DNA from: a virus
Strand: one strand, 5' to 3'
Virus record (IMG/VR): IMGVR_UViG_3300027974_000021
DNA: 64,000 bases
Below are positions 11,709-57,252 of the stretch, one piece after another (position 1 is the stretch's first letter; each line of letters opens with the position of its first letter). The translations under genes were made by a program, and so were the position numbers. The notes beneath the pieces are model-generated. The model was not told the DNA's origin. It worked only from the letters and a program-made list of their open reading frames with translations, and did not search any database.

Positions 11709-11737
11709 TTTACATACAAGTTAAAATATAGTATAAT
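11709..11737 (+). promoter_or_regulatory. Sigma70-like early/middle promoter
   Basis: TTTACA-N17-TATAAT upstream of primase. Confidence 0.75.
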
Positions 11738-21247: not shown

Positions 21248-21808
21248 ATGAATAATGTTATGAAATATGTGATTACAGGTCATAGATCTGGTATAGGTAA
21301 ATCTATATTTGATTATTATGTAAAACAACCTAATGTATATTGTGTTGGTTATGATTTATCACATCATTTAGATTTAAACGATTCAAAAGTACATTCAGAT
21401 TTTATAGATAGTTGTAAAGATGCTTCAGTCATAGTATTGAATGCACATACTGGACAACAACATGTTTCTTTAGAAGTTCTTTATAATCTTTATAAACAAG
21501 AATTAAAACATATAATCATAATGGGTTCAATGGTGAGTAAAATATGGAAGACTCTACAAGAAGTTCCTCAAGGATTTGAAAGCTATTGGTCGCAAAAGAA
21601 ATTACTTGATAAAACAATAGAAGAATTATATAATCCAAACATACCTCTTAAAATTAGTATCATTCGTCCAGCTTGGGTTGATACTCAACTCGCAAAAGAA
21701 TATTCAGGAAAAAAATTAACAATAGATTCAGTTTTAAATGTAATAAGATTTATAATTGAGAATAAAGACACACACATAACAAATATGGAATTACAATGTA
21801 CGAATTAA
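21248..21808 (+). CDS. Short-chain dehydrogenase/reductase
   Basis: ITGHRSGIG Rossmann motif, LNAH, YxxxK (YWSQK), IRPAWVDT. Confidence 0.8.
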   Translation: MNNVMKYVITGHRSGIGKSIFDYYVKQPNVYCVGYDLSHHLDLNDSKVHSDFIDSCKDASVIVLNAHTGQQHVSLEVLYNLYKQELKHIIIMGSMVSKIWKTLQEVPQGFESYWSQKKLLDKTIEELYNPNIPLKISIIRPAWVDTQLAKEYSGKKLTIDSVLNVIRFIIENKDTHITNMELQCTN

Positions 21809-23019
21809 GAAACAGTGCTGATGGTGAACTTCCTAAAATAGTCACAAACACTCATCGTTATTGGGTTGAAATGAATGATGGTAAAAAATACTTAGATATT
21901 CAATCTGGTAATAGTGCTTTCACACTTGGTTATGGTAATACTGAAATAGTAAAAGCAATGGCTGATAAAATTACTTCAGTTGGTTTTATAAGAGGAAATA
22001 CTGGTGAGAGTGATACAGATACTCAAGAGATGGTTCATTTTGTTTTATCTGAATCAAGAATGTCAGTTATGTCTTGGGCTATTTCTGGAACCTCAGCAGT
22101 AGAGTGTGCTATTATGATGAATGATAGTTATTGGAAACAAGTAAATCCTAAAAAACATTTAATTGTATCTTGCACTCCAGGATATCATGGCACAAGTTAT
22201 CTTACAAGAGCAATGGCTAGTCCATATACAGCTGATTTTCCATCTGATAGATTAAGATGTATTAGAGCACCTAAGTGGAACACAATAGAAGAACGTGCAT
22301 TGGAAGAAGAAAGAGCATTAGCAGAATTAGAAAAAAGATTTACTAAATTTGATGACTCTTCAAACGTTGGTGCTTTTATAATGGAAACATGTCCTTGGAT
22401 GGATGGAATACTTCCTTACAGTAAAAGATGGTGGGATGGTGTTAGACATCTTTGCACACAATATAATATAAATTTTATCACAGATGATGTGGCAGTTTGT
22501 TGGGGTAAATCATTATCTTATTTTGGTTATTCAACAGCAGGGTACAATGTTCAACCAGATATTATCGCTTGTGGTAAATCATTATCAGCAGGATATGCAC
22601 CAATTGGATTTGCAGCAGGTAATTCTCGTATTGGTGAAATTCTTTCAACACAAGAATGGGGATGGGGTCATACTTGGCAACCTTACATGGCTGGTATTGG
22701 TGCAATGAAAAAAGTAAAACAAATTATTCAAGATAATGGTCTATTTCATACAGCAAAAAGAACAGTTATACGTTTAGATGAAATTGCAAAAGATTTATTT
22801 AATCAAGGATATATAAAAAGTTATAGGCAACAAGGATTGTTTTTAGAATTAGATTGTAAGAATCCAACTGTTGGAGTAATGGGTAAGCTTGTTCGTTCAG
22901 GAATGCTTTCAACTACTCAACAAAACAATTCAGTAAGAATTATAGCAAATTTAATTGCTGATGATGAGTATTTTAATGAATTAAAGACTAGATTAAAGGA
23001 TTTTTTTAGTAAAAGCTAA
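21796..23019 (+). CDS. Class-III PLP-dependent aminotransferase
   Basis: SGTSAVE, GYHG, DDVAVCWGK, PDIIACGKSLSAGY (PLP lysine), GHTW. Confidence 0.88.
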   Translation: MYELRNSADGELPKIVTNTHRYWVEMNDGKKYLDIQSGNSAFTLGYGNTEIVKAMADKITSVGFIRGNTGESDTDTQEMVHFVLSESRMSVMSWAISGTSAVECAIMMNDSYWKQVNPKKHLIVSCTPGYHGTSYLTRAMASPYTADFPSDRLRCIRAPKWNTIEERALEEERALAELEKRFTKFDDSSNVGAFIMETCPWMDGILPYSKRWWDGVRHLCTQYNINFITDDVAVCWGKSLSYFGYSTAGYNVQPDIIACGKSLSAGYAPIGFAAGNSRIGEILSTQEWGWGHTWQPYMAGIGAMKKVKQIIQDNGLFHTAKRTVIRLDEIAKDLFNQGYIKSYRQQGLFLELDCKNPTVGVMGKLVRSGMLSTTQQNNSVRIIANLIADDEYFNELKTRLKDFFSKS

Positions 23020-42079: not shown

Positions 42080-42120
42080 AACATTTAAATCTCCTTTTTT
42101 AAGTGGAAGTGATATGAAAC

Positions 42121-43341
42121 ATGTACGAACTAAAAGAAATAAGTCCAGCAGAAAATCTTAAGAGAGTTATTAAGACTGATGGATATTGGGTACATTACGA
42201 GAATCGTACTAACTTAGAAGTACAGTCTGGTAATTGTTCGTTCACATTAGGTTATAATCATAAAGAATTAAAGAGTCTATTACCAACGAATGAGATTGAT
42301 TTTCTTCGTGGTAATAGTGGTGAGTCCGCAGAGCCTGTTGATCGTTTAAGTGAAACACTAACAAAAGAAGCTGGTATGGATGGCATCGCCTATGCTGTAT
42401 CTGGTTCAGATGGTAATGAGTGTGCTTTTTATATTAATGATTTATATTGGACTAATAAAGGTGAACCGAATCGAAGATATATAATTTCAATACCACCTTG
42501 TTATCATGGAACTACAGTTGTTTGTCGAAGTGCAAATAATGATATCGTAGAGAAAAGACAGAGTCGTTTTGTACCGATACGTGGAAGAACTTGGTACACA
42601 ACAGAAGATAGTATTGCGAACGAAACAAATGTACTCGAACAAATAATCGAAACATTTAAGAGTCGTAATGATATTGGTGCTATTTTAATTGAGAGTTATC
42701 CATGGAATAAAACAATTGCTCCATGGAGTCATAACTTCTATCAACTACTACGTGCAACTGCTACGTTATATGGTGCAAATTTAATCGTAGATGATATTGC
42801 AGGTTATGGTGGTAAGATAGGAACACTCTTTACTCATACAGCTTATAATATAAAACCTGATATGGTGACAATTGGTAAAGCACTTACAAATGGACTAATA
42901 CCATTATCAGCTTGTTTAATTAATGATAAAGTATTGAAACAAGTAAAGACTACATTTAATTGGGGGCATACTTGGCAACCGAATATGTATGGTGTGCGAG
43001 TAGCGAATCGTTGTATAGAGTTAATCAAAGAACGAATGGCATACTCGAAAGTAATCGAAAAGAATTTAAACGATATAGGTGATCGTTTAAAGAGTAAAGG
43101 ACTCGTGAGAAACGTAATTGGGAATGGAGTATGGAAGTCTTTTGTACCAGAACCAAATCCAATACCAATCTCGTTAGCTGAGATTGATAAAGCAGGAATG
43201 TCAGCAACAACGAACGAGAATACAATTAAGACAATTATACCACTAATTGCTGATGATATATACTTTGAAGAATTAGAAAAGCGATTAGAGGTTTGCTTTA
43301 CAAATATAAAAGAACAAAGAACACAAGGACTATTGATATGA
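42121..43341 (+). CDS. Class-III PLP-dependent aminotransferase (paralog of 21796..23019)
   Basis: MYELK/R start, QSGNxxFTLGY, SGSDGNE, YHGT, DDIAGYGGK, PDMVTIGKAL, WGHTWQP. Confidence 0.88.
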   Translation: MYELKEISPAENLKRVIKTDGYWVHYENRTNLEVQSGNCSFTLGYNHKELKSLLPTNEIDFLRGNSGESAEPVDRLSETLTKEAGMDGIAYAVSGSDGNECAFYINDLYWTNKGEPNRRYIISIPPCYHGTTVVCRSANNDIVEKRQSRFVPIRGRTWYTTEDSIANETNVLEQIIETFKSRNDIGAILIESYPWNKTIAPWSHNFYQLLRATATLYGANLIVDDIAGYGGKIGTLFTHTAYNIKPDMVTIGKALTNGLIPLSACLINDKVLKQVKTTFNWGHTWQPNMYGVRVANRCIELIKERMAYSKVIEKNLNDIGDRLKSKGLVRNVIGNGVWKSFVPEPNPIPISLAEIDKAGMSATTNENTIKTIIPLIADDIYFEELEKRLEVCFTNIKEQRTQGLLI

Positions 43342-43823
43342 ACGATAAACAATCTGCAGAAAAAACTACATATTTTCAATCAGAAAATGAAATACCTGAT
43401 TGGTATATAAACTATGCTGAAGGAACACCTGCATTTGCAGAGTACTTTAAACTTCAACTTCTTAAATTTGAACAGTTTGAAGATCAATCACTTTTAAACA
43501 CTGTTGCTCTTACAGTTGCAACTGTAAACAATTCAAAAGATCTAATGCATGATATAAGTCAAACGATGTTTGATAGAAATTTCGTGTATAGTCGAGATAT
43601 GGTAATGGGAGCAATCGCTGAGTGCTTAAATGACTATGCATTAATCGATAAGAATTATATACTAGGAGAAGATACCGATGAAGCGAGAGTTCGAATGACT
43701 GTTGCAATATTAAGAGGTATGCCTAAATCGTTATTCCTTGATTGGAACGAAACAAGAACAGAAGAAGAGCATAAAATACGTGCGATTATTGGTATAGTTG
43801 ACGTTATAAGCAAAATCATCTAA
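43338..43823 (+). CDS. Hypothetical protein, possibly a degenerate AhpD-like fold
   Basis: Weak resemblance to AhpD helices; no CxxC. Confidence 0.4.
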   Translation: MNDKQSAEKTTYFQSENEIPDWYINYAEGTPAFAEYFKLQLLKFEQFEDQSLLNTVALTVATVNNSKDLMHDISQTMFDRNFVYSRDMVMGAIAECLNDYALIDKNYILGEDTDEARVRMTVAILRGMPKSLFLDWNETRTEEEHKIRAIIGIVDVISKII

Positions 43824-43885
43824 ACCACTCTCAAAACACGTTAAAATAGGTTTAAACCCTATTCTATAATGAGAGTGAACTATTC

Positions 43886-43965
43886 TAAACCATTGATTTA
43901 TATAGCTTATTTTTTACTACCTTTGGTTTAAAAAGCTTTACTTTTAAGAATTTTTAAGGTATAAT
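43886..43965 (+). promoter_or_regulatory. Early promoter with upstream IHF-like box
   Basis: TAAACCATTGATT (reverse complement of WATCAA-N4-TTR), then TTTACT-N17-TATAAT (43937-43965). Confidence 0.7.
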
Positions 43966-44046
43966 ATACCTAAATAACATATAAGATTTGTTCTTATTCT
44001 TCTTCCCAAGAAGTTTAAGATTGTGAACTATATTGATGAAAAAACT

Positions 44047-44370
44047 ATGAAGCCATATAATCGAAACTTTCGAAGCACAAAAGACTTCAAGTCAAACGAC
44101 AAAAGAAATAGATTTGACTCGCCAAAGAAAACTTATTCAACACCTCATTACGAGCGTCCAAAAGAAACTGGTCTTGAAGTATTGGTTGAGAATGATAATA
44201 TTGAAAAGGCAATCCGAAGACTTAAAAAGAAAGTTGATCGCGAGGGTTTGATCCGTGAGATAAGAGATCGAGCCACTTATAGCAAACCATCAGAGAAACG
44301 TAAGATTGCAGCACAGAACGCAAGAGATCGTTGGCTGAAATATAAACGTGACCGAGATCGTTTGATTTAA
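44047..44370 (+). CDS. rpsU: Ribosomal protein bS21 with N-terminal extension
   Basis: VLVENDNIEKAIRRLKKKVDREGLIREIRDRATYSKPSEKRK core. Confidence 0.88.
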   Translation: MKPYNRNFRSTKDFKSNDKRNRFDSPKKTYSTPHYERPKETGLEVLVENDNIEKAIRRLKKKVDREGLIREIRDRATYSKPSEKRKIAAQNARDRWLKYKRDRDRLI

Positions 44371-44411
44371 AATAAAACCTAATATAATCTAATTCGAAAG
44401 GAAAAGAGTAT

Positions 44412-45005
44412 ATGAAAAGTTTGAATTTACAGGATGTGGGTAGGCGAGTGCGTCTCGCTATATTCCTCCTAATCCTATTACCATTCCTAATTATTCCAAG
44501 CATTACTACTTCAGCAGACGAAGAGTCACCTGAGTTTATTTGCTTAGTTGAGAACATTTACTTTGAGAGTAAAGGTGAATCAATGCGAGGAAAGATCGCT
44601 GTTGGAGTTGTCACTCTGAATCGTCTCAAAGATTCTCGATACCCTAAAACAATCTGCGAGGTTGTAAAGCAGGGTCCAGTAAGAGAATCTTGGAAAACAA
44701 GACAAGATCCCAATCTTACAGCCGACCAACGTTTATACAATCCAGTCCGTCATCGTTGCCAATTCTCTTGGTGGTGTGATGGATATAAAGAACGGATTAA
44801 GTATGATGAAAACTGGATCGATTCAGTGCGAGCAGCAAAGTCTGCTCTGACTGGTAAGTACGATGATCTAGTGGATGGAGCAACACATTACCATGCTGTC
44901 TATGTGACACCTGAATGGGCGAATCGTTTAAGATTCATCGTTCAGATTGATAATCATAAATTCTATGAATACCCAAAAACTTCCAAAGTCGCAAGTCTAT
45001 TCTAA
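44412..45005 (+). CDS. Cell-wall hydrolase (SleB/Hydrolase_2)
   Basis: N-terminal TM; CLVENIYFESKGE, VTLNR, CQFSWWCDG, GATHYHA, IDNHKFY. Confidence 0.88.
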   Translation: MKSLNLQDVGRRVRLAIFLLILLPFLIIPSITTSADEESPEFICLVENIYFESKGESMRGKIAVGVVTLNRLKDSRYPKTICEVVKQGPVRESWKTRQDPNLTADQRLYNPVRHRCQFSWWCDGYKERIKYDENWIDSVRAAKSALTGKYDDLVDGATHYHAVYVTPEWANRLRFIVQIDNHKFYEYPKTSKVASLF

Positions 45006-45008
45006 ATC

Positions 45009-45043
45009 CAAAGGCACTCATCCTTCTCAACCGAGTGCCTTTG
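45009..45043 (+). terminator. Stem-loop after the hydrolase gene (possible terminator)
   Basis: 11-bp inverted repeat CAAAGGCACTC/GAGTGCCTTTG; weak U tail. Confidence 0.45.
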
Positions 45044-45101
45044 CAACCCTCGCATCCCTCTCTCCTATATACTTAAATCTAACCAGAGCGTCGTCGTTTT
45101 T

Positions 45102-45275
45102 ATGAAAAGAACTGCAATCTGCTCAATCTGCGGAATTACTGCATACGTTCCAATCTCAAGATCATTACTCGCACTCTTACAATTTAACTGTAATTCGAAG
45201 CATGCTGAAAGATTCGGAGTCTGTGAATTTAAGCTTACAAAGAAGACTCAGAAGAGAAAGGTTTCGGGCACCTAG
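45102..45275 (+). CDS. Small Cys-rich protein (57 aa) overlapping the 5' end of tRNA-Val
   Basis: Manual translation MKRTAICSICG...NCNSKH...VCEFK; no clear SD. Confidence 0.35.
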   Translation: MKRTAICSICGITAYVPISRSLLALLQFNCNSKHAERFGVCEFKLTKKTQKRKVSGT

Positions 45276-45340
45276 TTCATTGGTAGAACACGTGGTCGAC
45301 ATCCACGGGGTGGCAGGTTCGATTCCTGCGGTGCCCACCA
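45266..45340 (+). tRNA. tRNA-Val(GAC)
   Basis: Acceptor GGGCACC/GGTGCCC, anticodon arm CGTGG-TCGACAT-CCACG, TTCGATT loop, ACCA end. Confidence 0.88.
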
Positions 45341-45341
45341 T

Positions 45342-45417
45342 GCCCTAATAGCTCAATTGGTAGAGCAACTGATTTGTAATCAGTAGGTTGGGAGTTCAAG
45401 TCTTCCTTAGGGCACCA
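45342..45417 (+). tRNA. tRNA-Thr(TGT)
   Basis: Acceptor GCCCTAA/TTAGGGC, anticodon arm ACTGA-TTTGTAA-TCAGT, ACCA end. Confidence 0.92.
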
Positions 45418-45549
45418 AATTCTTGGAAACGGATGATTTGGTGTTAAAAAGCAAGGAAATACGATGCTGAACCTCACGAACGACACACAGCGACATTCTC
45501 CTCGCATTCCTTCGCGCAGACCCAGACACTCCCACACTCCCCTTCGAAA

Positions 45550-45563
45550 CACTAGATCTAGTG
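45550..45563. repeat. Perfect 14-bp palindrome CACTAGATCTAGTG
   Basis: Read directly in a non-coding region. Confidence 0.9.
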
Positions 45564-45607
45564 GGTACTCTTTTCGTTCTCTCTAAAACCATGTAAATAA
45601 ATTCAGT

Positions 45608-45643
45608 TTTCGCCTTAATTTCGCCTTAATTGTAGGGTATAAT
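45608..45643 (+). promoter_or_regulatory. Promoter with tandem TTTCGCCTTAATT repeat (TTAA-N7-TTAA) over the -35 position
   Basis: TATAAT at 45638-43; TTAA-TTTCGCC-TTAA at 45615-45629. Confidence 0.55.
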
Positions 45644-45649
45644 ATTCGT

Positions 45650-45865
45650 ATGAAAACAAATAAAAAGGAAATAAGTATGACTGATACGTTTTGGAAACTA
45701 ACTTACTCGGATGGTGAAATTGAATATACTGAATTCGCTCCCTATTCGAATAAGTCTTATTATGAGTATGAGCGTCTTGAAAGTGTTGGAAATCCTGTGA
45801 TTCGATTTGAACTAGTTCGTGCTGATAAATCGAATAATGATTTAAGATTTGTGAGTGTTGCTTAA
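45650..45865 (+). CDS. Hypothetical early protein (start 45650 or 45677)
   Basis: ORF track; AAGGA SD before 45677. Confidence 0.55.
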   Translation: MKTNKKEISMTDTFWKLTYSDGEIEYTEFAPYSNKSYYEYERLESVGNPVIRFELVRADKSNNDLRFVSVA

Positions 45866-45972
45866 TGAAAAACTTTATAAATGAATCTTGGGTTGCTGTG
45901 CTAGTATTGGTGGCATTGATTGCTGCTGGTTATGGTGCAATGCATTTAATTCTATACTTCGGAGGATACTAA
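45865..45972 (+). CDS. Small TM protein (35 aa)
   Basis: Manual translation MKNFINESWVAVLVLVALIAAGYG...; TAATG coupling on both sides. Confidence 0.55.
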   Translation: MKNFINESWVAVLVLVALIAAGYGAMHLILYFGGY

Positions 45973-46148
45973 TGAAAACGAGAGAACTTTGGCTTGACTT
46001 CGAAACATGGTTGGAAAGAAATTATAATAGGAATGTGTCGGATCTATCCTGGAATGCATATGTTTTATTAAGTAAAGAATATAATTCTGAAAGATTGTCT
46101 ACTCGAAAGTACGAGACAAGGACAGAGAAAGGAATAGCGAATGATTAA
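45972..46148 (+). CDS. Hypothetical early protein
   Basis: GGAGG SD; MKTRELWLDF start. Confidence 0.55.
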   Translation: MKTRELWLDFETWLERNYNRNVSDLSWNAYVLLSKEYNSERLSTRKYETRTEKGIAND

Positions 46149-46464
46149 AACTGCATTATATTTAAATAAAGAGAATATGCATCAATCAGTGTATAAATTC
46201 ACTGGTAAATACGAACTCGTAGTGGAACAGGAAATACTCGCTTCTTCGAGAGATGAAGCATTTGAACTGTATTTAAAAGAGGGTGGATTAAACTACTCGA
46301 GAATAACATCGGATTTGACCGAAAACTCTCCGAGAATCGAAACTACTTATATTGATGCGATGACACCAGAGATGGAGATTAAGTATGTCGGAACTGTGGT
46401 GGCTTCGAGAGATGACGAGAACGAAGTGGAACTCGAGAATGCGTTAGGAGGATATAGTGGCTAA
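46141..46464 (+). CDS. Hypothetical early protein
   Basis: ORF track; AAGGA SD. Confidence 0.6.
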   Translation: MIKTALYLNKENMHQSVYKFTGKYELVVEQEILASSRDEAFELYLKEGGLNYSRITSDLTENSPRIETTYIDAMTPEMEIKYVGTVVASRDDENEVELENALGGYSG

Positions 46465-46675
46465 GTTGTTTAAATTGAACTCTGGGAGAAGAAAAACACT
46501 CCGTGCACATATACCAAATTTGAGTGGAAAGAGAGAGATTGCAATTACTCAGATCTCGGCATTATTAAGAGAAGATACGAATATGAGTCACGAGCAGAGT
46601 ATTGAGTTTGCGACTCGAGTATTGAATAGCTATTTGGCAGCGAATATGCAGTCACCAAGTGGAAGAGTACACTAA
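46457..46675 (+). CDS. Hypothetical early protein
   Basis: AGGAGG SD with GTG start. Confidence 0.55.
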   Translation: MAKLFKLNSGRRKTLRAHIPNLSGKREIAITQISALLREDTNMSHEQSIEFATRVLNSYLAANMQSPSGRVH

Positions 46676-46839
46676 TGAATAAAAAGGTGGTAATCTCATT
46701 CGTTGACGAGTCTGGCGAGAATCGAGTGTTTAATGATTGGGCTTCTGCCGAGGAGTATTTAAAGACAGTAATCGCATTAAATCGTGAATTTACAGGAATA
46801 CAAGCTTCGTTAATTGTGAATACACGAAAAAAGGTATAA
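46675..46839 (+). CDS. Hypothetical early protein (54 aa)
   Basis: Manual translation MNKKVVISFVDESGENRVF...; TAATG coupling. Confidence 0.5.
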   Translation: MNKKVVISFVDESGENRVFNDWASAEEYLKTVIALNREFTGIQASLIVNTRKKV

Positions 46840-46840
46840 A

Positions 46841-46898
46841 AAACAATGACTTATTTTGCACGATTTTGCTTTACTTATTCACTAAAATAGACTATAAT
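46841..46898 (+). promoter_or_regulatory. Early promoter with upstream IHF-like box
   Basis: AAACAA-TGAC-TTA, then TTTACT-N17-TATAAT (46870-46898). Confidence 0.68.
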
Positions 46899-46927
46899 AG
46901 AGGATATAAACAACTAAAATATATAAA

Positions 46928-47155
46928 ATGAACTATCTTGAAGAAATAAAAGAACTAAAAAAAAGAAAACTAAATAATGGTGAAATCGCAGAACACTTAG
47001 GTATTACAAAGAGCCAAGTGCGTAAGTTATTGAATGATGAATACGAAGAATTAAGTGATTCATCTTATACTGATGCTGATTGCTCATATAGCTATTCGAA
47101 TGACGATTCGGATATAGGTGATATAATCAGTACAATGCGAGGACAATCATACTAA
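46928..47155 (+). CDS. Small helix-turn-helix DNA-binding protein
   Basis: LNNGEIAEHLGITKSQVRKLL HTH pattern with acidic tail. Confidence 0.65.
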   Translation: MNYLEEIKELKKRKLNNGEIAEHLGITKSQVRKLLNDEYEELSDSSYTDADCSYSYSNDDSDIGDIISTMRGQSY

Positions 47156-47176
47156 CCTTATAAGGAAAACATAAAC

Positions 47177-47455
47177 ATGAAAAGATTCGAATTTATATGT
47201 AAAGGAAAGCGAAGTCACTTTCTTGAAGCATTAACAGAAGAAGCAGCAAGATCATTCTTTGCTGAAAATCGTACGACAGCTACATTAGAGATTATCGATG
47301 TAATTGAAGTAGCAATACCAACTCCAATTGACAAGTCTGGAGCATCAATGAAACTTGAAGGATTCGAGAGAATTAATTCTGAAGTTAAAGTATCAAAAGC
47401 AGATCTTGATGCATTAGCAGCTTCGACTCCAAACGATAATAAGATTGGATATTAG
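47177..47455 (+). CDS. Hypothetical protein
   Basis: ORF track; AAGGA SD. Confidence 0.55.
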   Translation: MKRFEFICKGKRSHFLEALTEEAARSFFAENRTTATLEIIDVIEVAIPTPIDKSGASMKLEGFERINSEVKVSKADLDALAASTPNDNKIGY

Positions 47456-47470
47456 TTTATTTTTATTATT

Positions 47471-47818
47471 ATGCCATTGATGCCGATATATTATAATTCA
47501 ACGAATCTAAACCCTCGTATGCGCAAATCAAAGAATAAAAAACTTCGGAACGCAAACCTTGAGCATGAAGAATGGCTCAAATCACGAGGGTTGCATTCGT
47601 CACAGTTAAGTAATCACTCAGAAGAATACAAGCTTGAAGTGAATCGAAAAGAACCTTACAATACAAATCACAATATTACTGGGAATACAAATCGAGTTTC
47701 TGAGAACGTTTATACAGGGACGTTGATTAAAGGAATCGCAACGATGCATAAGAGCAATGCAGTTCCAATCATTAACGAAGAACAAGCAGTCGAAATATCA
47801 AAAATGAGAAGAGGATAA
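47471..47818 (+). CDS. Conserved T4-like hypothetical protein
   Basis: YTGTLIKGIATMHKSNAVPI...MRR C-terminal motif. Confidence 0.7.
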   Translation: MPLMPIYYNSTNLNPRMRKSKNKKLRNANLEHEEWLKSRGLHSSQLSNHSEEYKLEVNRKEPYNTNHNITGNTNRVSENVYTGTLIKGIATMHKSNAVPIINEEQAVEISKMRRG

Positions 47819-47819
47819 C

Positions 47820-48095
47820 ATGATCGAAACATACATATTATTCGGAGCAGCAATATTCGGTATTGGTTGGCTTCTAGGCAATTTTACGAAAGACAAAGAG
47901 AAAGCAGACTATACAATGTTTATTATTGATTCATTGATACAGAATCGCTTTCTCAGAACACATCCAATCGAGATACTCCCAAGAGTATTCGTGAAACATA
48001 TTATTCGTTGGGATACACCAAAGGAACACTTGAAAAACCCAGTGAAATTGGAAGAATTTCATTTTCCAAAGAACTTTACAAACAATCCAAAATAG
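47820..48095 (+). CDS. Membrane-anchored hypothetical protein
   Basis: N-terminal TM. Confidence 0.5.
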   Translation: MIETYILFGAAIFGIGWLLGNFTKDKEKADYTMFIIDSLIQNRFLRTHPIEILPRVFVKHIIRWDTPKEHLKNPVKLEEFHFPKNFTNNPK

Positions 48096-48103
48096 TATAT
48101 AAT
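48075..48103 (+). promoter_or_regulatory. Sigma70-like early/middle promoter
   Basis: TTTACA-N17-TATAAT. Confidence 0.7.
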
Positions 48104-48111
48104 ATATCATT

Positions 48112-48675
48112 ATGAAATCATTGACACCTGAATTTTTAAGAAATATTCAAGACAATATAACGAGAATGAGTAATGAAGACAAGAAACGATTATCGAGTAA
48201 GAGAAGAATTGAGATAATCGGTTATTGTAATCTAAAGAAAAGACAGATTGATTCCTGGATCTCTTCATTACTTCATCTCGATAGTCGTATTGCAACGAGT
48301 GAGTCGACGAGTCTACAATCTTCAATTACTTCTCCAAATACTCCATTATGGAAACTCTATAATACATTGACTTCAATTTCGAATGATTTAGCAACTGAGA
48401 TTGATTCCTATACTTATTGGAATTCAACGAGTAATGAGCGAATACTTATTGGATCGAATAATTTAAGTAATCGAATTGAGAATCGTGTATTCACCAAAGG
48501 AAAAAACAATCCCTATTATTCATATATTGAAGCGATAATCGAGATCGCCGAAGAAGAAGGAATCGAACTAAGTAATATAAAGAATTCATTGAGTAAGTCT
48601 ATACTTCAGAAGATTGAAGCAATCGGCTATTCGAGAAAAGAATTAAAAGGCAGTACTGCTACATTGCCATTTTAA
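48112..48675 (+). CDS. gp33: Late-transcription coactivator gp33-like protein with long N-terminal extension
   Basis: C-terminal SYIEAII..AEE.GIE....K..LSKSI.QKIEA......LK.....LPF; located upstream of gp32. Confidence 0.65.
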   Translation: MKSLTPEFLRNIQDNITRMSNEDKKRLSSKRRIEIIGYCNLKKRQIDSWISSLLHLDSRIATSESTSLQSSITSPNTPLWKLYNTLTSISNDLATEIDSYTYWNSTSNERILIGSNNLSNRIENRVFTKGKNNPYYSYIEAIIEIAEEEGIELSNIKNSLSKSILQKIEAIGYSRKELKGSTATLPF

Positions 48676-48780
48676 ACGATATTTCAGTGGAAGAAATTTC
48701 ATTGAAATCAAATCCGACTTTTGAACGTTTTGGTCGGGAACCCTAAAACGTATCATTACATTATAACAAAGGAGACAATT

Positions 48781-48981
48781 ATGTTTAAACATTTAATTAC
48801 GTTTCTAACTGCATTACTCTTCACAGTATCAGTTTCTGCACAAACACCAGCACCTAAAAAGGAAGAGCCAAAAGCTCCGACTGTAGTATGTGTAGAAAAA
48901 GATAAGAATGGTAAAGCAATCATTGATGCAAAGACAAATAAACCTGTCGTGTGTCCAAAGAAAGACGAAAAGAAGAAGTAA
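48781..48981 (+). CDS. Small secreted protein
   Basis: AAGGAG SD, signal peptide (VSA-Q), K/P-rich, two Cys. Confidence 0.6.
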   Translation: MFKHLITFLTALLFTVSVSAQTPAPKKEEPKAPTVVCVEKDKNGKAIIDAKTNKPVVCPKKDEKKK

Positions 48982-49003
48982 TTCTTCTCTCTGTCGCTGT
49001 ATT

Positions 49004-49052
49004 GGGCGAAGTAAATCTCGCCCTTTACTTACACGAAAAAATAGAGTATAAT
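49004..49052 (+). promoter_or_regulatory. Terminator-like hairpin abutting the gp32 promoter
   Basis: GGGCGA/TCGCCC stem, then TTTACT-N17-TATAAT (49024-49052). Confidence 0.65.
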
Positions 49053-49144
49053 AACTCTAGTAGTGTGAAATCTATATTATATTGAAGTAAAGACCTATAT
49101 TATTATACAACGCATATAACGCATATAAAAAAGGAGATAACCAC

Positions 49145-50032
49145 ATGGTGGATCTAAATGCTCTTCGTAAAGAGAGCCAAAATGACTTTACGAAAATTAA
49201 TCAAGAGTTCGATCGAATTAATAAAGGATCGAGCGCAAAATCAGACTCTTCTGAAGACACTCGTTTTTGGAAACTAGAACCAGATAAACTGGGCAATGCA
49301 ACAGCAGTCATTCGTTTTCTTCCACGTAGCAATGGTGATGAACTTCCATGGGTGAGATTATTTTCACATGGTTTTCAGGGACCATCTGGTAAATGGTATA
49401 TAGAGAACAGCCGAACAACATTGAATGAAAAAGATCCTGTCGGAGAATTGAATTCTAAGTTGTGGGCGAGTAATCTTGAGAGTAATCGAGAGATTGCGAG
49501 AAAGCAAAAGAGACGTATGCATTACATCGCGAATGTTTATATTATCAGTGATCCGAAGAATCCTGCAAACGAAGGAACAGTGAAACTGTTTAAGTTTGGA
49601 AAGAAGATCTTTGATAAGATTATGGAAAAGGCGAAACCTACATTTGCTGATGAGAAACCAATGAATGTATTCGATATATTCGCTGGTGCTGACTTTAGAT
49701 TGAGAATGCGTAAAGTAGATGGTTATGCAAACTACGATCAGAGTAGTTTTCTTGAACCAAATGCATTCTTGAGTAGTGATGAGAAGAGATTAACAGAAAC
49801 GTTAGCAAAAGCTCATCCATTGGCTCCTTTCATTGCACCGACACAGTTTAAGTCATATGAAGATTTAAATCGTCGACTGAATGAGGTACTTGAAACTCTT
49901 CCAGAATCTAAATCATCTGGAACAATTGCAAAACCAAAAACAGCTGAGAATACAACTTTGACTTCGGCGAAAAAAGAAGAAGAGGATGTATTAAGCTATT
50001 TTCAAGGAATAGCAAATGACCTTGAATCATAA
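49145..50032 (+). CDS. gp32: Single-stranded DNA-binding protein (T4 gp32)
   Basis: DTRFWK, AVIRFLP, WYIENS, FGKKIFDKI, NYDQSSF, acidic tail. Confidence 0.95.
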   Translation: MVDLNALRKESQNDFTKINQEFDRINKGSSAKSDSSEDTRFWKLEPDKLGNATAVIRFLPRSNGDELPWVRLFSHGFQGPSGKWYIENSRTTLNEKDPVGELNSKLWASNLESNREIARKQKRRMHYIANVYIISDPKNPANEGTVKLFKFGKKIFDKIMEKAKPTFADEKPMNVFDIFAGADFRLRMRKVDGYANYDQSSFLEPNAFLSSDEKRLTETLAKAHPLAPFIAPTQFKSYEDLNRRLNEVLETLPESKSSGTIAKPKTAENTTLTSAKKEEEDVLSYFQGIANDLES

Positions 50033-50036
50033 GAAT

Positions 50037-50297
50037 ATGAATAAATCGAATCTGACGTTTTATTTGCTTCTGATTAGTTGGACAACTACAATACTTGTGG
50101 GAGTTTGGGCTTGGAATGTAAATAGTAAGTATGATCGAGCGAAGTTTATATTACGTGAGTATTTTGATCGAGAGGTTGCGAAGAGTAAAGTATTGCAATT
50201 ATTCGAGCCGAATATTCATAATCGATTGCTGGATAAGCTATTCGAAGAGTGGTTAAGGAATAAGAATAGTAATGTTTTAACCTCGAATATTAAATAA
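50037..50297 (+). CDS. Membrane-anchored hypothetical protein
   Basis: N-terminal TM. Confidence 0.5.
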   Translation: MNKSNLTFYLLLISWTTTILVGVWAWNVNSKYDRAKFILREYFDREVAKSKVLQLFEPNIHNRLLDKLFEEWLRNKNSNVLTSNIK

Positions 50298-50312
50298 ACG
50301 TAGTAGTTTAAT

Positions 50313-50350
50313 TTCTAATCCCTTTACTTCCAAGAAGAGAGGGGTTAGAA
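50313..50350. terminator. Long hairpin near the convergence of + and - transcription
   Basis: TTCTAATCCCT...AGGGGTTAGAA stem with inner CTTC/GAAG. Confidence 0.45.
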
Positions 50351-50529
50351 TAAACACCTGTAGAGGTTTCAAGGAATATAGAATTAGAAATTTATGATAG
50401 AATTAATTATAGGAATTAGTTTGGCACTTGCGATTGCTGTAATTGTGATGTATAACTTTCCGATTTAAAACCGAATATAAATTTCAACGATCAATATAAT
50501 CATTCCAGCAATAAGTATTATCGGATCCA

Positions 50530-51162
50530 TTAGATTGAACGAAATACTCGAATCTCACCATCCTCAATTACACGATAAGCTTCAAAGGTAATTGAAGAAT
50601 ATTCACGACTTAATCTTAAAAAAGCTTTTAAATTCTCTCGGTCATCATCAAAGAATCTTACTTTCGAGAAAGACTTTGTATTCAAATACTTACGAATAAT
50701 CATTGCTTTTCTCGCAGCACCTGATCCACTCTCTATATTCCCTGCACGTTCAACTCGAACACTATCAATGTCAAAGCCATATTTACGGAAAGTTTTAAGG
50801 AATACATTCTTACTATCAAAATCAGTTCTTGCGGTTAATATAATTACACGTGAGTTTTCGTATTTCTTTGCTGATGCTAATATCAATTTGGCACGTCGCA
50901 TCATTCGTCCGATCGGTTGAGATTCTTTATAGAACTTCGCTGCATCTTTAAATTCAGTATAATCAAACATTTCATTTGCTCCTAAAGTATAGGAAGCATA
51001 TTCTGCAGTTGTTAATGTACGGATTGTTTCTTTTGTGATTGAATTGCGAACTCGAATAGTTGCTGTTGTACGGAAGAGTGTATCATCAATATCGAATATT
51101 GTTAGCCAACCATTCGCATACTCGTCATGAGTCTTTACGTAATTACTAAACGTTTGAACCAT
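50530..51162 (-). CDS. HAD-superfamily phosphatase (polynucleotide 3'-phosphatase/RNA-repair-like)
   Basis: FDIDDTLF motif I, LTAR motif II, K, FFDDD motif IV. Confidence 0.8.
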   Translation of the reverse strand: MVQTFSNYVKTHDEYANGWLTIFDIDDTLFRTTATIRVRNSITKETIRTLTTAEYASYTLGANEMFDYTEFKDAAKFYKESQPIGRMMRRAKLILASAKKYENSRVIILTARTDFDSKNVFLKTFRKYGFDIDSVRVERAGNIESGSGAARKAMIIRKYLNTKSFSKVRFFDDDRENLKAFLRLSREYSSITFEAYRVIEDGEIRVFRSI

Positions 51163-52720
51163 AGAGAGAACCTACATATTTCGAAAGAGTATTCTCATCG
51201 TTTCGAACAGTTTTTGACGTCATTAAATTACTCTCTTTTGGAGCATTTACAGTTGAACTTGGTGCATTAATAATTACATTTGAACTCGCAGCACTCTTTG
51301 CACTCTCAGCATCAGCAGAAGAAGACATTATTTGATTGCCAACATCGCTCGGTGTTCCAGAACTAATTACATTATTGAATCCTGTCGGCGAAACACCAGA
51401 GAGTGTATTCGTAGAACTAAGTTCACTAGATTTTGAAAGATTGTTTTCAGAAGCTACCTTTTTATTAATATGTTTTTGGTTTGAAGTAATCACATCTTCG
51501 TTTATTTTACGATATGCTTGTACTTCTTGTTTTGTACCAATTTCAGAGAGAGCAGTATTAATATTCGAATCTGTTAATTCTTTACCTGAAGTTGAAGCAC
51601 TCATCATTAATGAATTCATTCGAATATTCATTGCATCTTGTAAACCCTCATTTTTATCAAGTATTGATTTTGCAGATTCTTTTGTCATTGGAGTCTTCGG
51701 AAGAGAAACTGATTCACCAGTCAATGATTTATTAATCACTGGTGAAACTGGAGTCACTGGAGCTCTACTTGGGTTTCCATCAGATCCTATTGTTCTATCT
51801 GAATTTAATCCTTCTACATTGTTTACCTTTGGTAAAACATTTTTTGAAGGAATAGGTTTCTCAGCACCAACTGTATCTTGTTGCGGTGTTGAAATTTCAG
51901 ATTTACGGAAAGGATAGAAAGGACCGATTGAAACACCAAATACTTTAAACTCTGGTATTCCTAGATTATTTAAAAAGCCTGATAACATTTGTCCTAAACG
52001 TTCTGGTAATTTCGATATGTAATCTCCGATGCTTGTAAAGAATTTCTTAATTGAATTTACAATTATATCCCCAAGATTGTCAGGTAAATCTAAACCGAAT
52101 AAATTAGCAACCCAATCAACAATACCAAATACGAAATTAAGTGCACCTTTGAAAAATCCTTCTACGAATGAACCTACGATATCAAAGAAAGAACCACCTG
52201 ATTTATACATTGCGAATGCATCTTTAATTCCACGAACGAATCCTGCAATTGCAACTGTAATTCCTCCAATAATCGCAGCAGCAAGTCCTGCAGGAAGTCC
52301 TGCTAAGAATCCAAAGAATCCTACAATTATTCTTAAAAAACCTTTTGTAAGGAATGGAAGTACTCCTTTAAAAATAAATCTAGAAGCAGCAGCAATACCT
52401 GAGAAAAGAGCACCAAATAATTTAGAAATTAACATTGCACCATAAAAGCCAAGCATATTACCAAAATTCATTTTAGAATCTGTATTCTCTTCTAATGCAT
52501 TACTGTCTCTTCCAGATACACCTTTTGCTATTACTTCAAGTAAATCTACCATTCTTTGAATGTTTAATGAAGTTTCTCTTGCTGTTTCTTCATTAGCAGG
52601 TTTATTTGAACTGTTTTCTACGTTTGAAACAAGAGGTTGACCTTTAGCATCAACTAAGAGTGCTTTCGGTTGTCCATCGTTTACAATAGATTGTTGTACA
52701 AGTACGTTTGTAAGTGCCAT
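51146..52720 (-). CDS. Baseplate hub / tail length determinant (gp29-like)
   Basis: Hydrophobic G/A-rich helical region; C-terminal VIINAPSSTVN; position after gp51. Confidence 0.6.
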   Translation of the reverse strand: MALTNVLVQQSIVNDGQPKALLVDAKGQPLVSNVENSSNKPANEETARETSLNIQRMVDLLEVIAKGVSGRDSNALEENTDSKMNFGNMLGFYGAMLISKLFGALFSGIAAASRFIFKGVLPFLTKGFLRIIVGFFGFLAGLPAGLAAAIIGGITVAIAGFVRGIKDAFAMYKSGGSFFDIVGSFVEGFFKGALNFVFGIVDWVANLFGLDLPDNLGDIIVNSIKKFFTSIGDYISKLPERLGQMLSGFLNNLGIPEFKVFGVSIGPFYPFRKSEISTPQQDTVGAEKPIPSKNVLPKVNNVEGLNSDRTIGSDGNPSRAPVTPVSPVINKSLTGESVSLPKTPMTKESAKSILDKNEGLQDAMNIRMNSLMMSASTSGKELTDSNINTALSEIGTKQEVQAYRKINEDVITSNQKHINKKVASENNLSKSSELSSTNTLSGVSPTGFNNVISSGTPSDVGNQIMSSSADAESAKSAASSNVIINAPSSTVNAPKESNLMTSKTVRNDENTLSKYVGSLYGSNV

Positions 52721-52906
52721 TTATTTTTGTATTCTTCTTTGTTCTGCTTTTTGTTTTTCTTCTTGTAAATGTTTAATCAACATTTCAACATATATTTCAC
52801 GTTCAAAAGGTATCTGATTTTCAAGCTCAGTCAAAGAGTATTTATGATATTGCATTAATGCGAAGTTAGTCTTATAATGGTTGACTAACGACTCATGGCT
52901 GAGCAT
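52721..52906 (-). CDS. gp51: Baseplate hub assembly catalyst
   Basis: YKTNFALMQYHKYSLTELEN..PFEREIY. Confidence 0.85.
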   Translation of the reverse strand: MLSHESLVNHYKTNFALMQYHKYSLTELENQIPFEREIYVEMLIKHLQEEKQKAEQRRIQK

Positions 52907-53643
52907 TATGAAAAAAAATTGGCTAAACCCTCTATCTTTCTTGTATGTGATTTATTACACCCTTTACAAGTCCAGATTATTTCTTTACTTAATCTTGGCA
53001 TAGTTTCGAAAAACTTTTGTATTTTACTAAATTGACCTGTTGTTAAGTTATTAACAAATTCACTTAGTTCTTTTTTAGTTTGTTCTTTACTATGATATAT
53101 TTGTTGTCCATCATATATGTAATCTATACTATCAGTTATAATATCAAAGAAAACTTCTGTATCTAGTTTATTTTGATCTGCTAATTTCAATGTCTTTAAT
53201 TTTAAAAGTAAATCTAATGATGGGTATTTCATTACAACACCTACATCATTAAATAGAGATATTTTATTCTCATGTCCTTCTGGTGTAATTACAGGAACAT
53301 TCATTATATTAATTTTTAATATACTCTTAGCTTCCTTATTATCTTTACACTCTGGTGTATCGCATTTAGCGATTAATTCTACTTCTTCACCAACTGACTT
53401 ACCACGTAATTGACAAAAAATATATTCTAAGTCAAATAATGCTAAATCATTTGTATCGAGTCCGACTACACACTCACCAACAATTGTTTTAAGTGTGTTC
53501 ATCATTGTCTTTTCATCTTCAGATTGGAACGCAAGCAATAAAGCTTTTTCTTGTTTCACTAGAAATGGCTTATACTTATATTCTTTCTTAGAAGATGGAA
53601 CAGTTAATGTATAGGTTGGTGTACTACTTATTGGCAATGCCAT
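52906..53643 (-). CDS. gp26: Baseplate hub subunit
   Basis: MALP..PTY.L..PS, PFLVKQEKALL, FDLEYIF..LRGKSVGE, KYP, GLANFF. Confidence 0.88.
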   Translation of the reverse strand: MALPISSTPTYTLTVPSSKKEYKYKPFLVKQEKALLLAFQSEDEKTMMNTLKTIVGECVVGLDTNDLALFDLEYIFCQLRGKSVGEEVELIAKCDTPECKDNKEAKSILKINIMNVPVITPEGHENKISLFNDVGVVMKYPSLDLLLKLKTLKLADQNKLDTEVFFDIITDSIDYIYDGQQIYHSKEQTKKELSEFVNNLTTGQFSKIQKFFETMPRLSKEIIWTCKGCNKSHTRKIEGLANFFS

Positions 53644-53647
53644 ATTA

Positions 53648-54088
53648 TTATTCTCCTTCAGTTTCTTTATAATTTTTAATTATCTTATTCAATTCATTCG
53701 TAGAACCTATAAACACATTATTGTTTACAGTTTTTGTTTCTGTTTTCTGTATTCGTCCTACATCTGCTTGTTGTTTGTGTAAATCTAATAATTGCTGGTT
53801 TACATCAGCAAGTTGTTTTATCATATTACCTACAACTTCAAAGGCTCTTGGATGCTCTGATTGTTTTGCTATCTCGAGTGAATGCTTTAATGCTTCTTCT
53901 CCTTTTAAAAGGAGATTGTGAAGATTAGAACGAGAAGTGTTAAAATCAGTAGCAATCGTATTCTCTTTTTCATTTGCTATCTCTTTTGGACTTATTACTT
54001 CCAAATTTGTATATGGCTCAGTTGGCTCACTGACCTTTAATTTCTCACTGTTAAACACTTCACTTAATTTATCATCTATAATAGACAT
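53648..54088 (-). CDS. gp16: Terminase small subunit
   Basis: SRSNL, SEHPRAFEV, NNNVFIGST.EL. Confidence 0.85.
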   Translation of the reverse strand: MSIIDDKLSEVFNSEKLKVSEPTEPYTNLEVISPKEIANEKENTIATDFNTSRSNLHNLLLKGEEALKHSLEIAKQSEHPRAFEVVGNMIKQLADVNQQLLDLHKQQADVGRIQKTETKTVNNNVFIGSTNELNKIIKNYKETEGE

Positions 54089-56072: not shown

Positions 56073-56080
56073 TATTTATA
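56073..56080 (-). promoter_or_regulatory. T4 late promoter TATAAATA driving the gp4 operon
   Basis: TATTTATA on the + strand, 18 nt upstream of the gp4 ATG. Confidence 0.65.
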
Positions 56081-57252
56081 TGTCTATTTTAAACTCAACC
56101 ACTCCAACAGCTAACTTTGGTGATTATGGCGATTCAGTATATCGCACAAAACAGTTCATGTATCCAACTGATTTACTATCAGTAGATCCAAATAAAAATG
56201 AATATGGTGGTCAATACATGATGATTTATATTAACGTCACATCAGATTCTACATTCACAAGAGCAGATGAACAACAATCAGCAATACCAAATATAAGTAA
56301 AAGAGTAGGAAAAGAATTATCAGGAGTAAAAGCATCAGGATTGTTAAAAAAAGAAAGTATTATTTCAGCAATAGCTTTGGCTGGTGGAGTAGCAGGTGGT
56401 GCTGGTGGAGCAATCGCAGCAGGAGCTCCAGGAGGAATAGTTGGTGGAGGAGTAGGTGCTGTTTTAGCAGGAGCATTAGGTGTATCATTAGGAGGTGATT
56501 TTTCTAAACCAAGAAAAAGATTATTAACAGCTATCGCTTTACATATACCAAATAATATTGCTATAAATTATGGTGTTAATTATGGTGAAGCTGATGGAGC
56601 TCTTACTGATTTAGTAATGAGAGGAATTGATACAGGGGCAGCAGGTTTAGAAGCATTAATCACAAGTCCAGGAGGAGCAGGAAAAGAAGTTTTTAACAAC
56701 ATAGGAAAAAGTGGAATCGGTGGAGGATTACAAGGTCAAGCACTTAATGTTTTAGGAGACACAGGAAAGATTATAGGAAAACTAGCAGGTGTTGCTTCTA
56801 ATCCAAAAAAAGAACAAATATTTGAAGGTGTGCCTTTTAGATCATTCAGTTATACATATGATTTTTATCCTCGTAGTGAAGAAGAATCAGAGAATGTTAA
56901 AAGAATACTTGATGAATTAAAATATCACATGCATCCTAATTTTAAAGATGATGCTGGTTTTTTATTTGAATATCCAGCAGAGTTTGATATATTCTTTATG
57001 CATAAAGGACAAGAGAATAAATTTATACACAAACATAGATCAGCTGTACTAGAATCAATGTCTGTTAATTATGCACCGAATGGTCAATTCTCATCATTTC
57101 CTAATGGTTCACCAACATCATATCAAGCCACATTAAATTTCAAAGAAGTTTCAATTATTACAAAAGAAGCTTTAGAAAATATGGGTGAAGTTCAACAAAG
57201 AAACACAAACAGTCCTGTAAGAAACTTTGGTGGACAAGCTGATACATTTTAA
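56080..57252 (+). CDS. gp48: Baseplate tail-tube cap
   Basis: YPTDL, IALHIP, NPKKEQIFEGVPFRSFSY...PRSEEE, LNFKE. Confidence 0.85.
   Translation: MSILNSTTPTANFGDYGDSVYRTKQFMYPTDLLSVDPNKNEYGGQYMMIYINVTSDSTFTRADEQQSAIPNISKRVGKELSGVKASGLLKKESIISAIALAGGVAGGAGGAIAAGAPGGIVGGGVGAVLAGALGVSLGGDFSKPRKRLLTAIALHIPNNIAINYGVNYGEADGALTDLVMRGIDTGAAGLEALITSPGGAGKEVFNNIGKSGIGGGLQGQALNVLGDTGKIIGKLAGVASNPKKEQIFEGVPFRSFSYTYDFYPRSEEESENVKRILDELKYHMHPNFKDDAGFLFEYPAEFDIFFMHKGQENKFIHKHRSAVLESMSVNYAPNGQFSSFPNGSPTSYQATLNFKEVSIITKEALENMGEVQQRNTNSPVRNFGGQADTF

Follow-up and report, generated by a model that had tools for sequence, protein, structure and literature searches.

Phage genomes are usually treated as compositionally uniform, save for recently imported genes. 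In phage T4, genes follow discrete codon-usage patterns related to the expression time (Cowe & Sharp 1991, J Mol Evol 33:13; as cited in PMC3152331), and these codon-usage classes are the closest precedent for the locus described here, a domain of about 10 kb rich in CpG, and especially in TCG and CGA, in the genome of a freshwater T4-like myovirus with 31% G+C. The genome is the complete 144,834-bp IMG/VR record IMGVR_UViG_3300027974_000021, which has a 123-bp terminal repeat; the window, that is, the whole 64,000-nt stretch analyzed, corresponds to its positions 54052–118051, and coordinates below are those of the window unless genome positions are specified. As in T4, groups of genes with distinct synonymous usage coexist in one genome, and the late structural genes are the most biased (frequency of G at third codon positions, G3, of 0.03–0.06). 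Unlike in T4, the deviant class is a single contiguous 10-kb block, sharp-edged, conserved in a clade, and best defined by CpG and TCG, and the same early-type promoter is found in and out of the block; moreover, the T4 classes have been linked to the expression time, while codon usage here is read from sequence alone.

Other described systems resemble the block in part. Hyperplastic (plastic-periphery) regions of T4-like phages also consist of small lineage-specific open reading frames (ORFs), tRNAs and auxiliary genes that turn over rapidly and lie between conserved modules, but here the unusual composition spans the core genes gp32 and gp33 as well, and it is vertically inherited, congruent and stable over deep divergence, not merely a trace of recent foreign DNA. 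Horizontal genomic islands share with the block the atypical codon usage, oligonucleotide signature and G+C content of third codon positions (GC3), and the abrupt borders; in contrast to islands, the block has no phylogenetic discordance, patchy distribution or mobility genes, and avoids GGCC, CCGG and GTWAC in the same way as the rest of the genome. Isochores and tracts of GC-biased gene conversion are likewise regional, long-lasting shifts in GC3, blind to gene boundaries, whereas in this case neither a recombination signal nor AT-to-GC substitution is in excess, and the shift occupies 10 kb within a 145-kb virus.

A TCG/CGA-rich block of about 10 kb at 42100–52300 had been proposed in the first-pass annotation of the window, based on hand counts; it is real, and the only such block in the genome. 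In 2-kb windows, the observed-to-expected ratio (o/e) of CpG is 1.0–1.28 across 42–52 kb and 0.33–0.85 in the remaining part of the window. In 10-kb windows over the whole 144.8-kb genome, the ratio is ~1.12–1.15 in the domain, compared to the mean of 0.62 (standard deviation 0.09) and the maximum of 0.88 elsewhere, making the domain the sole long stretch with CpG o/e >1. Likelihood-based change-points set the edges of this compositional domain, which has no strand, at 42190 and 52280, with ~35 CpG per kb between them and 11–13 per kb in the flanks. On the right side the CpG-rich state is irregular up to ~52.28 kb, inside the gene of a 524-aa protein, with a dip at ~51.4–52.0 kb, while in relatives this edge falls between the gene of a 210-aa protein (50530–51162) and the variable 524-aa gene.

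Per unit length, every trimer with a CpG is enriched (CCG 3.4-fold, TCG 3.0-fold, GCG 2.2-fold, ACG 1.65-fold). TCGA occurs 7.2 times per kb in the domain and 1.4 times in the rest of the genome (5.2-fold), GANTC, 6.0 and 2.9 times (2.1-fold), and A4/T4 tracts, 18.8 and 31.9 times (0.59-fold), so that the impressions of raised GANTC and reduced A-tracts hold. The hand counts behind the proposal were exact: the two paralogous aminotransferase genes contain 8 CpG (21796–23019) and 39 CpG (42121–43341); 15 of the 16 CpG in the ORF at 46141–46464 and all 22 in the ORF at 48112–48675 are within TCG or CGA; and 8 GANTC sites are present in 44412–45005.

Genes were called with a simple longest-ORF heuristic, yielding 185 ORFs; the errors are few (a false ORF over the tRNAs and some missed overlapping real genes), with totals unaffected. 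Local GC or amino-acid content as the cause of the enrichment is ruled out by codon resampling and by the CpG o/e in all three codon phases. When proteins are held constant and codons are sampled according to their usage in the rest of the genome, 166 ± 11 CpG are expected in the domain, compared to 325 observed (z ~14), and the CpG z-score is positive in 21 of the 21 domain ORFs; the enrichment thus survives a control at fixed protein sequence. The position-specific CpG o/e in the three codon phases is 1.51/0.91/1.35 in the domain versus 0.85/0.61/0.93 in the rest of the genome, with a matching CpA deficit.

The CpG excess comes mainly from a block-wide synonymous shift to G- and C-ending codons and to CGN codons of arginine. 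GC3 is 0.28 in the domain and 0.15 in the rest of the genome, and the third-position frequencies in plus-strand domain genes are 0.185 for G and 0.107 for C, compared to 0.081 and 0.070 elsewhere. The G-ending codons GAG, AAG, CAG, TTG, CTG, GTG and all NCG are 2–4 times commoner in the domain, some C-ending codons (TTC, ATC, TGC, CTC) are also more frequent, and CGA and CGT replace AGA, the share of AGA among arginine codons dropping from 61% to 34% and that of CGA growing from 7% to 26%. The increase of NCG codons (2.2–3.7-fold) is similar to that of G-ending codons lacking CpG (2.0–3.7-fold), with CGA at 3.8-fold, and, given the codon usage of the domain itself, the total CpG count is only 1.04 times the expectation. 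The two minus-strand genes at the right end depart from the pattern of the plus-strand genes of the block. Genome-wide, G3 forms a gradient, from the low values of structural genes given above via 0.08–0.15 in other genes to 0.16–0.33 in the domain. By standard wobble rules, the phage tRNA-Arg(ACG) could read the enriched CGA and CGT codons, whereas tRNA-Val(GAC) and tRNA-Thr(TGT) do not fit the general rise of G-ending codons.

Beyond codon usage, a neighbour-context bias is observed. When codon usage is kept, TCG/CGA are 1.34-fold overrepresented in the domain (z 7.7) versus 1.11–1.19-fold in control regions, and TCGA is at 1.37-fold (z 3.3, synonymous permutation) versus 0.64–0.93-fold, while AAAA is at 0.67-fold versus 0.87–0.91-fold, and CTA/TAG, at 0.66-fold versus 0.89–0.96-fold, with TpA at 0.91-fold in the domain. 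GAA/TTC and CTC/GAG are raised as well, and nearly all overrepresented 3–4-mers of the domain contain TC/GA. The bias disregards gene boundaries and strand, as had been stated at first sight: in the sense strand each word behaves like its reverse complement (TCG 1.39-fold and CGA 1.41-fold, AAAA 0.71-fold and TTTT 0.58-fold), so that this bias belongs to the double helix and not to the mRNA, and a context effect at the mRNA or translation level is ruled out. Compared to the rest of the genome, the context biases of the domain have the same direction and differ only in being stronger.

The suggestion that a second code is superimposed on coding DNA did not stand, as the signal is mostly an ordinary codon shift. 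Around CpG, position –1 alone is informative (T in 52% of cases versus 41% elsewhere in the genome), and neither a longer motif nor a spacing pattern was found around CpG in the domain. The candidate extended motif TAYTCG, with 43 of its 87 window sites falling in the domain irrespective of strand and frame, reduces to the preference for T at –1. Synonymous G/C sites involved in CpG are no better conserved between relatives than other G/C sites, and the density of TpC in the domain is 1.28 times that of the rest of the genome. In non-coding domain DNA, 37 CpG are present in 1174 nt by hand count, with 23 of the 37 in two segments adjacent to tRNAs; the gaps chosen as a control outside the domain were coding.

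No close relative of this phage was found among cultured-phage records, the best matches of gp32 and of the baseplate hub being below 50% protein identity. The close relatives are metagenomic contigs, whose names apparently point mostly to freshwater samples. In relatives at 82–99% nucleotide identity, the CpG step is located exactly at the aminotransferase start in all cases, and on the other side, beside the 210-aa gene. The domain is also seen in the contigs L198, L201/L202 and L206, the last of these with 62–83% identity of backbone proteins and 71% identity of gp32, and in-domain identity falls in parallel with the backbone identity across relatives. Altogether, the peak recurs in orthologous regions of >20 independent contigs from different samples, with the step at the aminotransferase start or by the 210-aa gene, and hence the enrichment is not an assembly artefact, be it a chimera or a strain junction.

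The next lineage out, L003, is syntenic and specifically shares the accessory genes of the block (aminotransferase, S21, hydrolase and the 210-aa gene), but displays little contrast, with CpG o/e of ~0.9 throughout and gp32 GC3 of 0.16. The gp32 tree coincides with that of seven baseplate/structural proteins, (L006,(L003,(L206,window clade))), with support 0.95–1.0, and this congruence rules out an import from a distant lineage. The earlier impression that the block is not one transferred island is confirmed by the agreement of these trees and by the in-domain identity tracking that of the backbone. The distribution of the block is not patchy, every relative down to 62% hub identity having it. 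Neither an integrase nor a homing-endonuclease domain is present in the block, direct or inverted repeats at its borders not having been searched for, and the tRNAs sit within the block and not at its edge.

The 144.8-kb genome, the domain included, does not contain a single GGCC, CCGG or GTWAC site; for the domain, ~40 sites are estimated from composition. This is strong restriction-site avoidance, common to the CpG-rich block and the remaining genome. For the genome as a whole, base composition predicts dozens of each of these sites (an estimate), compared to none observed. GGCC and CCGG are found 0–2 times in many freshwater relatives and tens of times in several more distant loci, some of them from marine metagenome records. 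Given the recurrence in >20 contigs, the congruent trees, and the absence of these sites inside the block as well as outside, the domain is native, rather than an island or a chimera.

In most relatives (e.g., L013, L057, L105, L113, L140), GC3 of gp32 exceeds that of structural genes by 0.08–0.15, and CpG profiles in 1-kb windows have, family-wide, a bump at gp32 followed by a dip. Hence the contrast at the right edge is a family trait, and what distinguishes the domain-bearing clade is how large the block is and how sharp its left edge is. Taken together, the compositional domain is genuine, native, vertically inherited and long-lived.

The block also differs from its surroundings in evolutionary rates. 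Between the window and L002, dN/dS is 0.26 in the block versus 0.10 outside (2.6-fold), while dS is similar (0.22 and 0.18). On three branches of the domain-bearing clade (the stem, L206, and the window clade), gp32 evolves at ~1.4 times the backbone rate, compared to ~0.55 times elsewhere, that is ~2.5-fold faster, and since the acceleration is seen on every branch of this clade, it is a lasting property rather than a one-time event. The block is hyperplastic, with ORF insertions and deletions and divergent sub-blocks at 45.5–46.0, 47.0–47.5 and 51.0–52.5 kb. The domain CpG totals are steady, with a balanced turnover (301, 312 and 307 in three genomes).

Substitutions on terminal branches were polarised by parsimony in four-taxon alignments, and the counts are small. 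The ratio of synonymous AT-to-GC to GC-to-AT changes is 99:71 in the domain and 127:57 in the flank, while the rate of A<->T synonymous changes is 0.033 in the block and outside it alike. The loss of G/C-ending sites amounts to 0.108–0.138 per site in the domain versus 0.196 in the flank, and AT-to-GC changes occur at 0.077–0.086 per site versus 0.101. These data speak, weakly, against a simple decay of a foreign signature, and hint that selection keeps A/T-ending codons genome-wide, but less so in the block. Pairwise GC3 flux was rejected as a proof of a separate equilibrium, as pairwise counts are symmetric by construction and the A<->T clock at fourfold sites differed.

We tentatively favour, as the best reading of these observations, a persistently weaker pressure against G/C-ending and CpG codons acting on the block. 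About 20 consecutive genes would form an early/accessory module built around gp33 and gp32, which would long have been under a weaker pressure of this kind than the rest of the phage genome. Synonymous sites of the module would thus be nearer to their mutational and neighbour-context equilibrium (GC3 of 0.28 rather than 0.15, CGA and CGT rather than AGA), and the genome-wide context bias, with T preferred before CG and A after it, and with A/T tracts, TpA and CTA/TAG avoided, would show more freely, so that the GC3 shift would multiply CpG, and above all TCG and CGA. The faster protein evolution of the same block would reflect relaxed constraint. The block may then be the extreme, contiguous end of the T4-type codon heterogeneity of gene classes, and not a superimposed sequence code. 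Both the G3 gradient and the GC3 excess of gp32 in relatives are expected if A/T-ending codons are selected according to the expression class. That weaker selection is responsible, and not a regional force of mutation or selection on the DNA itself, is our inference. Among the candidates listed in the first-pass annotation, a local regime is close to this reading.

Several observations weigh against weaker selection. The left edge is abrupt, as CpG o/e is 0.23 in the exonuclease gene and 1.12 in the next large gene, and no consensus promoter was found between the two. Small accessory ORFs elsewhere, e.g., at 25.2–27.8 kb, are CpG-poor, and hence the gene class alone does not predict the CpG state. 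The gp32 gene, which by analogy with T4 should be highly expressed, bears the domain signature, and the early-type promoter is of one type inside and outside the domain. Relaxed translational selection alone does not predict stronger strand-symmetric context biases, and the reading needs an added assumption that these biases are mutational. Finally, the polarisation depends on parsimony with four taxa and few changes, and a pairwise A<->T clock taken at fourfold sites (3.9% vs 7.6%) conflicts with that of the terminal branches.

The early-type promoter, with boxes TTTACTTACAAG and TAGAGTATAAT-like separated by a spacer, is found at ~17 intergenic sites at genome positions 18321–103103, in the non-structural half of the genome. 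Eight sites are in the window, at 11709, 23023, 26395, 38726, 43937, 46870, 48075 and 49024, and the last four of them, on the plus strand (span 43937–49052), are in the domain, matching the consensus TTTAC[TA], 17-nt spacer, TATAAT, which occurs outside as well. Since this promoter is common to the block and to its surroundings (genome 18–103 kb), the promoter type does not distinguish the block, and a separate transcription class defined by it was rejected. The late-type boxes TATAAATA are uninformative.

A selected DNA-level field is an explanation that we regard as unlikely, though serious. It implies that a scarcity of A/T tracts and TpA and an abundance of TpC/GpA and TCG/CGA are maintained in the block because of the way proteins or enzymes read the helix there, and would serve either to lower the binding of host silencers that recognize AT-tracts over essential early genes, or to provide denser targets for the Tet/JBP-type dioxygenase of the phage acting together with a glycosyltransferase. 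The strand symmetry of the biases beyond codon usage, their strength compared to control regions (e.g., for TCG/CGA and AAAA), the ubiquity of TC/GA in the overrepresented words, and the persistence of the CpG-rich state over deep divergence are consistent with such a field. A Tet_JBP dioxygenase is encoded at genome positions 45368–45847, upstream of the window, and the complete genome has no match to PF00145, PF01555 or PF02086 (C5, N6/N4 and Dam-type methyltransferases, respectively) and none to PF02195 (ParB). According to a 2026 paper (PMC13229309), glycosyltransferases are frequent companions of ParB-independent phage thymine dioxygenases, and a characterised enzyme of this kind prefers the NTC context; the phage Tet_JBP protein, with neither a methyltransferase nor ParB, fits this class. 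The connection between Tet_JBP and TpC is a lead and not a test. At the same time, the lack of information beyond position –1 of CpG, the mere 1.28-fold rise of TpC, and the ordinary conservation of synonymous CpG sites all argue against a selected field. Two of the promoter-bearing spacers in the block (43824–44022 and 46840–46927) are CpG-poor, with 2 CpG in 287 nt by hand count, and the spacer upstream of gp32 has 6 CpG in 163 nt; and there is no evident reason for treating this block alone. If such a field is maintained, it would constitute a clade-conserved regional epigenetic patterning of the phage chromosome, with denser 5-hydroxymethyluracil/glycosyl modification, or with silencer exclusion, over the gp32/gp33 module, which we consider rather improbable.

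An ancient block replacement, equally doubtful, would have preceded the split of L206 and the window clade: a homologous swap from an unsampled GC3-richer sister lineage, with slow amelioration since. Sharp edges close to gene boundaries, the weak contrast in the outgroup L003, and the long gp32 stem branch of the domain clade (0.37 versus 0.15 for L003) are compatible with it. The correlation of synonymous states between the window and L206 persists (r = 0.22 ± 0.04), and these sites are not saturated, so a relic would not yet have vanished, and time by itself does not speak against an old one. GC-richer relatives (GC 0.41) with CpG o/e of ~1 inhabit the same habitats, and patch-wise allele swaps do occur in the population, as in L081, L201 and L202, where the hub gene and the 524-aa gene are replaced. 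On the other hand, the gp32 tree is congruent with that of the backbone, L003 specifically has the accessory genes in common with this phage, and the acceleration of gp32 goes on in later branches, beyond the stem. The terminal branches display no net loss of GC3 or CpG, G/C-ending sites decaying more slowly than in the flank; the block is fully devoid of GGCC, CCGG and GTWAC; and scans of the collection with gp32 yielded no donor-like lineage. An apparent exchange of the domain in L202 and L081 proved to be a small replaced patch comprising the hub and 524-aa genes, with no evidence of the domain itself moving.

A recombination hot spot, where GC-biased heteroduplex repair raises GC3, is still less plausible. 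It would account for GC3 being raised whatever the gene and for the hyperplasticity of the block, but phylogenetically incongruent informative sites constitute 10–17% in the domain and 11% in the left flank, which speaks against a hot spot, and the 524-aa gene alone stands out with 71%. The per-site frequency of AT-to-GC changes is not raised, and the third-position rise in the coding sense is far larger for G than for C (G3 +0.10, C3 +0.04), which is not what a strand-blind repair bias predicts. A literature search for GC-biased gene conversion in phages found no such report.

A dense target field for a TCGA- or GANTC-specific DNA methyltransferase, one of the candidates in the first-pass annotation, is very improbable: the densities of TCGA and GANTC are indeed elevated, and TCGA exceeds the permutation expectation, but GANTC is weakly above the expectation at fixed codon usage (z 1.4–2.9), the enrichment takes in every NCG context and G-ending codons generally, and the phage encodes no enzyme of the three Pfam methyltransferase families (a host enzyme is possible). 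A loading or spreading zone for a DNA-binding protein had also been proposed, and for one of the ParB type neither a ParB-fold protein nor a repeated site was found. The further candidate of an origin-linked regime found no support either, as base skew tracks gene orientation only and changes at neither domain edge, which rejects a replication origin or a strand-skew regime. In sum, the readings of the block as a motif code, a methylase field, an island or an artefact are all rejected.

The first gene of the domain encodes a class-III aminotransferase (42121–43341, plus strand; Pfam PF00202, E 1e-40), whose product is 31% identical to that of the CpG-poor paralogue mentioned above. It is followed, on the same strand, by an ORF with no assigned function at 43293–43823, conserved in L002 and L003 and probably starting near 43338, by a gene of a homologue of ribosomal protein bS21 (44023–44370; PF01165), with 48.9 CpG per kb, mostly in arginine CGN codons, and with a CpG-rich orthologue in L003, and by a gene of a cell-wall hydrolase (Hydrolase_2, endolysin-like) at 44412–45005 (PF07486; phrog_938). 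The tRNA-Val(GAC) and tRNA-Thr(TGT) genes were identified at 45266–45417, plus strand, by ARAGORN and as Rfam RF00005, and a scan with Rfam yielded these two tRNAs only. Directly 3' of tRNA-Thr, on the plus strand, is a C-rich non-coding stretch (45418–45649) with 13 hand-counted CpG in its 232 nt. It matches no Rfam family and could be an unrecognised RNA or a decayed tRNA.

The plus-strand region 45650–48095 contains ~10 small ORFs of 54–115 aa, with G3 of 0.10–0.29 and 27–55 CpG per kb; among them, the ORF at 46928–47155 (plus strand) has a weak helix-turn-helix match below Pfam cut-offs, and the one at 47471–47818 (plus strand) belongs to phrog_27048. Then follow, also on the plus strand, the gene of a gp33-type late-transcription co-activator (48112–48675; PF16805), the one with all CpG in TCG or CGA, the gene of the single-stranded-DNA-binding protein gp32 (49145–50032; PF08804; phrog_224), with GC3 of 0.28 compared to the lower value in the outgroup L003, and an ORF of 93 aa (50016–50297), the final plus-strand gene of the block, with G3 of 0.33. 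In the convergent gap between the latter and the 210-aa gene, a candidate 24-codon hydrophobic mini-ORF is seen at 50394–50468.

The 210-aa protein, encoded on the minus strand at 50530–51162, has a weak polynucleotide-kinase-like PHROG match; its gene is CpG-rich due to 17 arginine CGN codons, and the L003 and L206 orthologues are likewise CpG-rich. The hypervariable 524-aa protein (51146–52720, minus strand) is encoded by a gene partly affected by the CpG bias, with the right domain edge inside it in this genome and at its 3' end in relatives. Its identity among relatives is 30–79%, with neighbouring genes being >90% identical. The patch of the 524-aa gene and the adjacent baseplate hub gene swapped in L081, L201 and L202 has identities of 44% and 80%, with 97–100% on both sides. 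The region of the 524-aa gene (51146–53643, minus strand) looks like a recombining cassette of host-range or diversity genes. Outside the domain, the 390-aa protein encoded at 56080–57252 is mosaic, being 80% identical in L082, which is otherwise 96–100% identical, and 94% identical in the more distant L002.

Composition-based predictors of islands, hosts and chimeras will misread such blocks. The >20 related metagenomic contigs already at hand may serve for population-genetic tests, also in view of a possible link of the block to thymine hypermodification, and the block is a clean natural system to tell codon-usage selection, a regional bias of mutation and selection on the DNA itself apart in a virus. 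Different synonymous-site equilibria can coexist for a long time in parts of one small viral chromosome, and the block is isochore-like in this respect, being stable at 60–80% protein identity.

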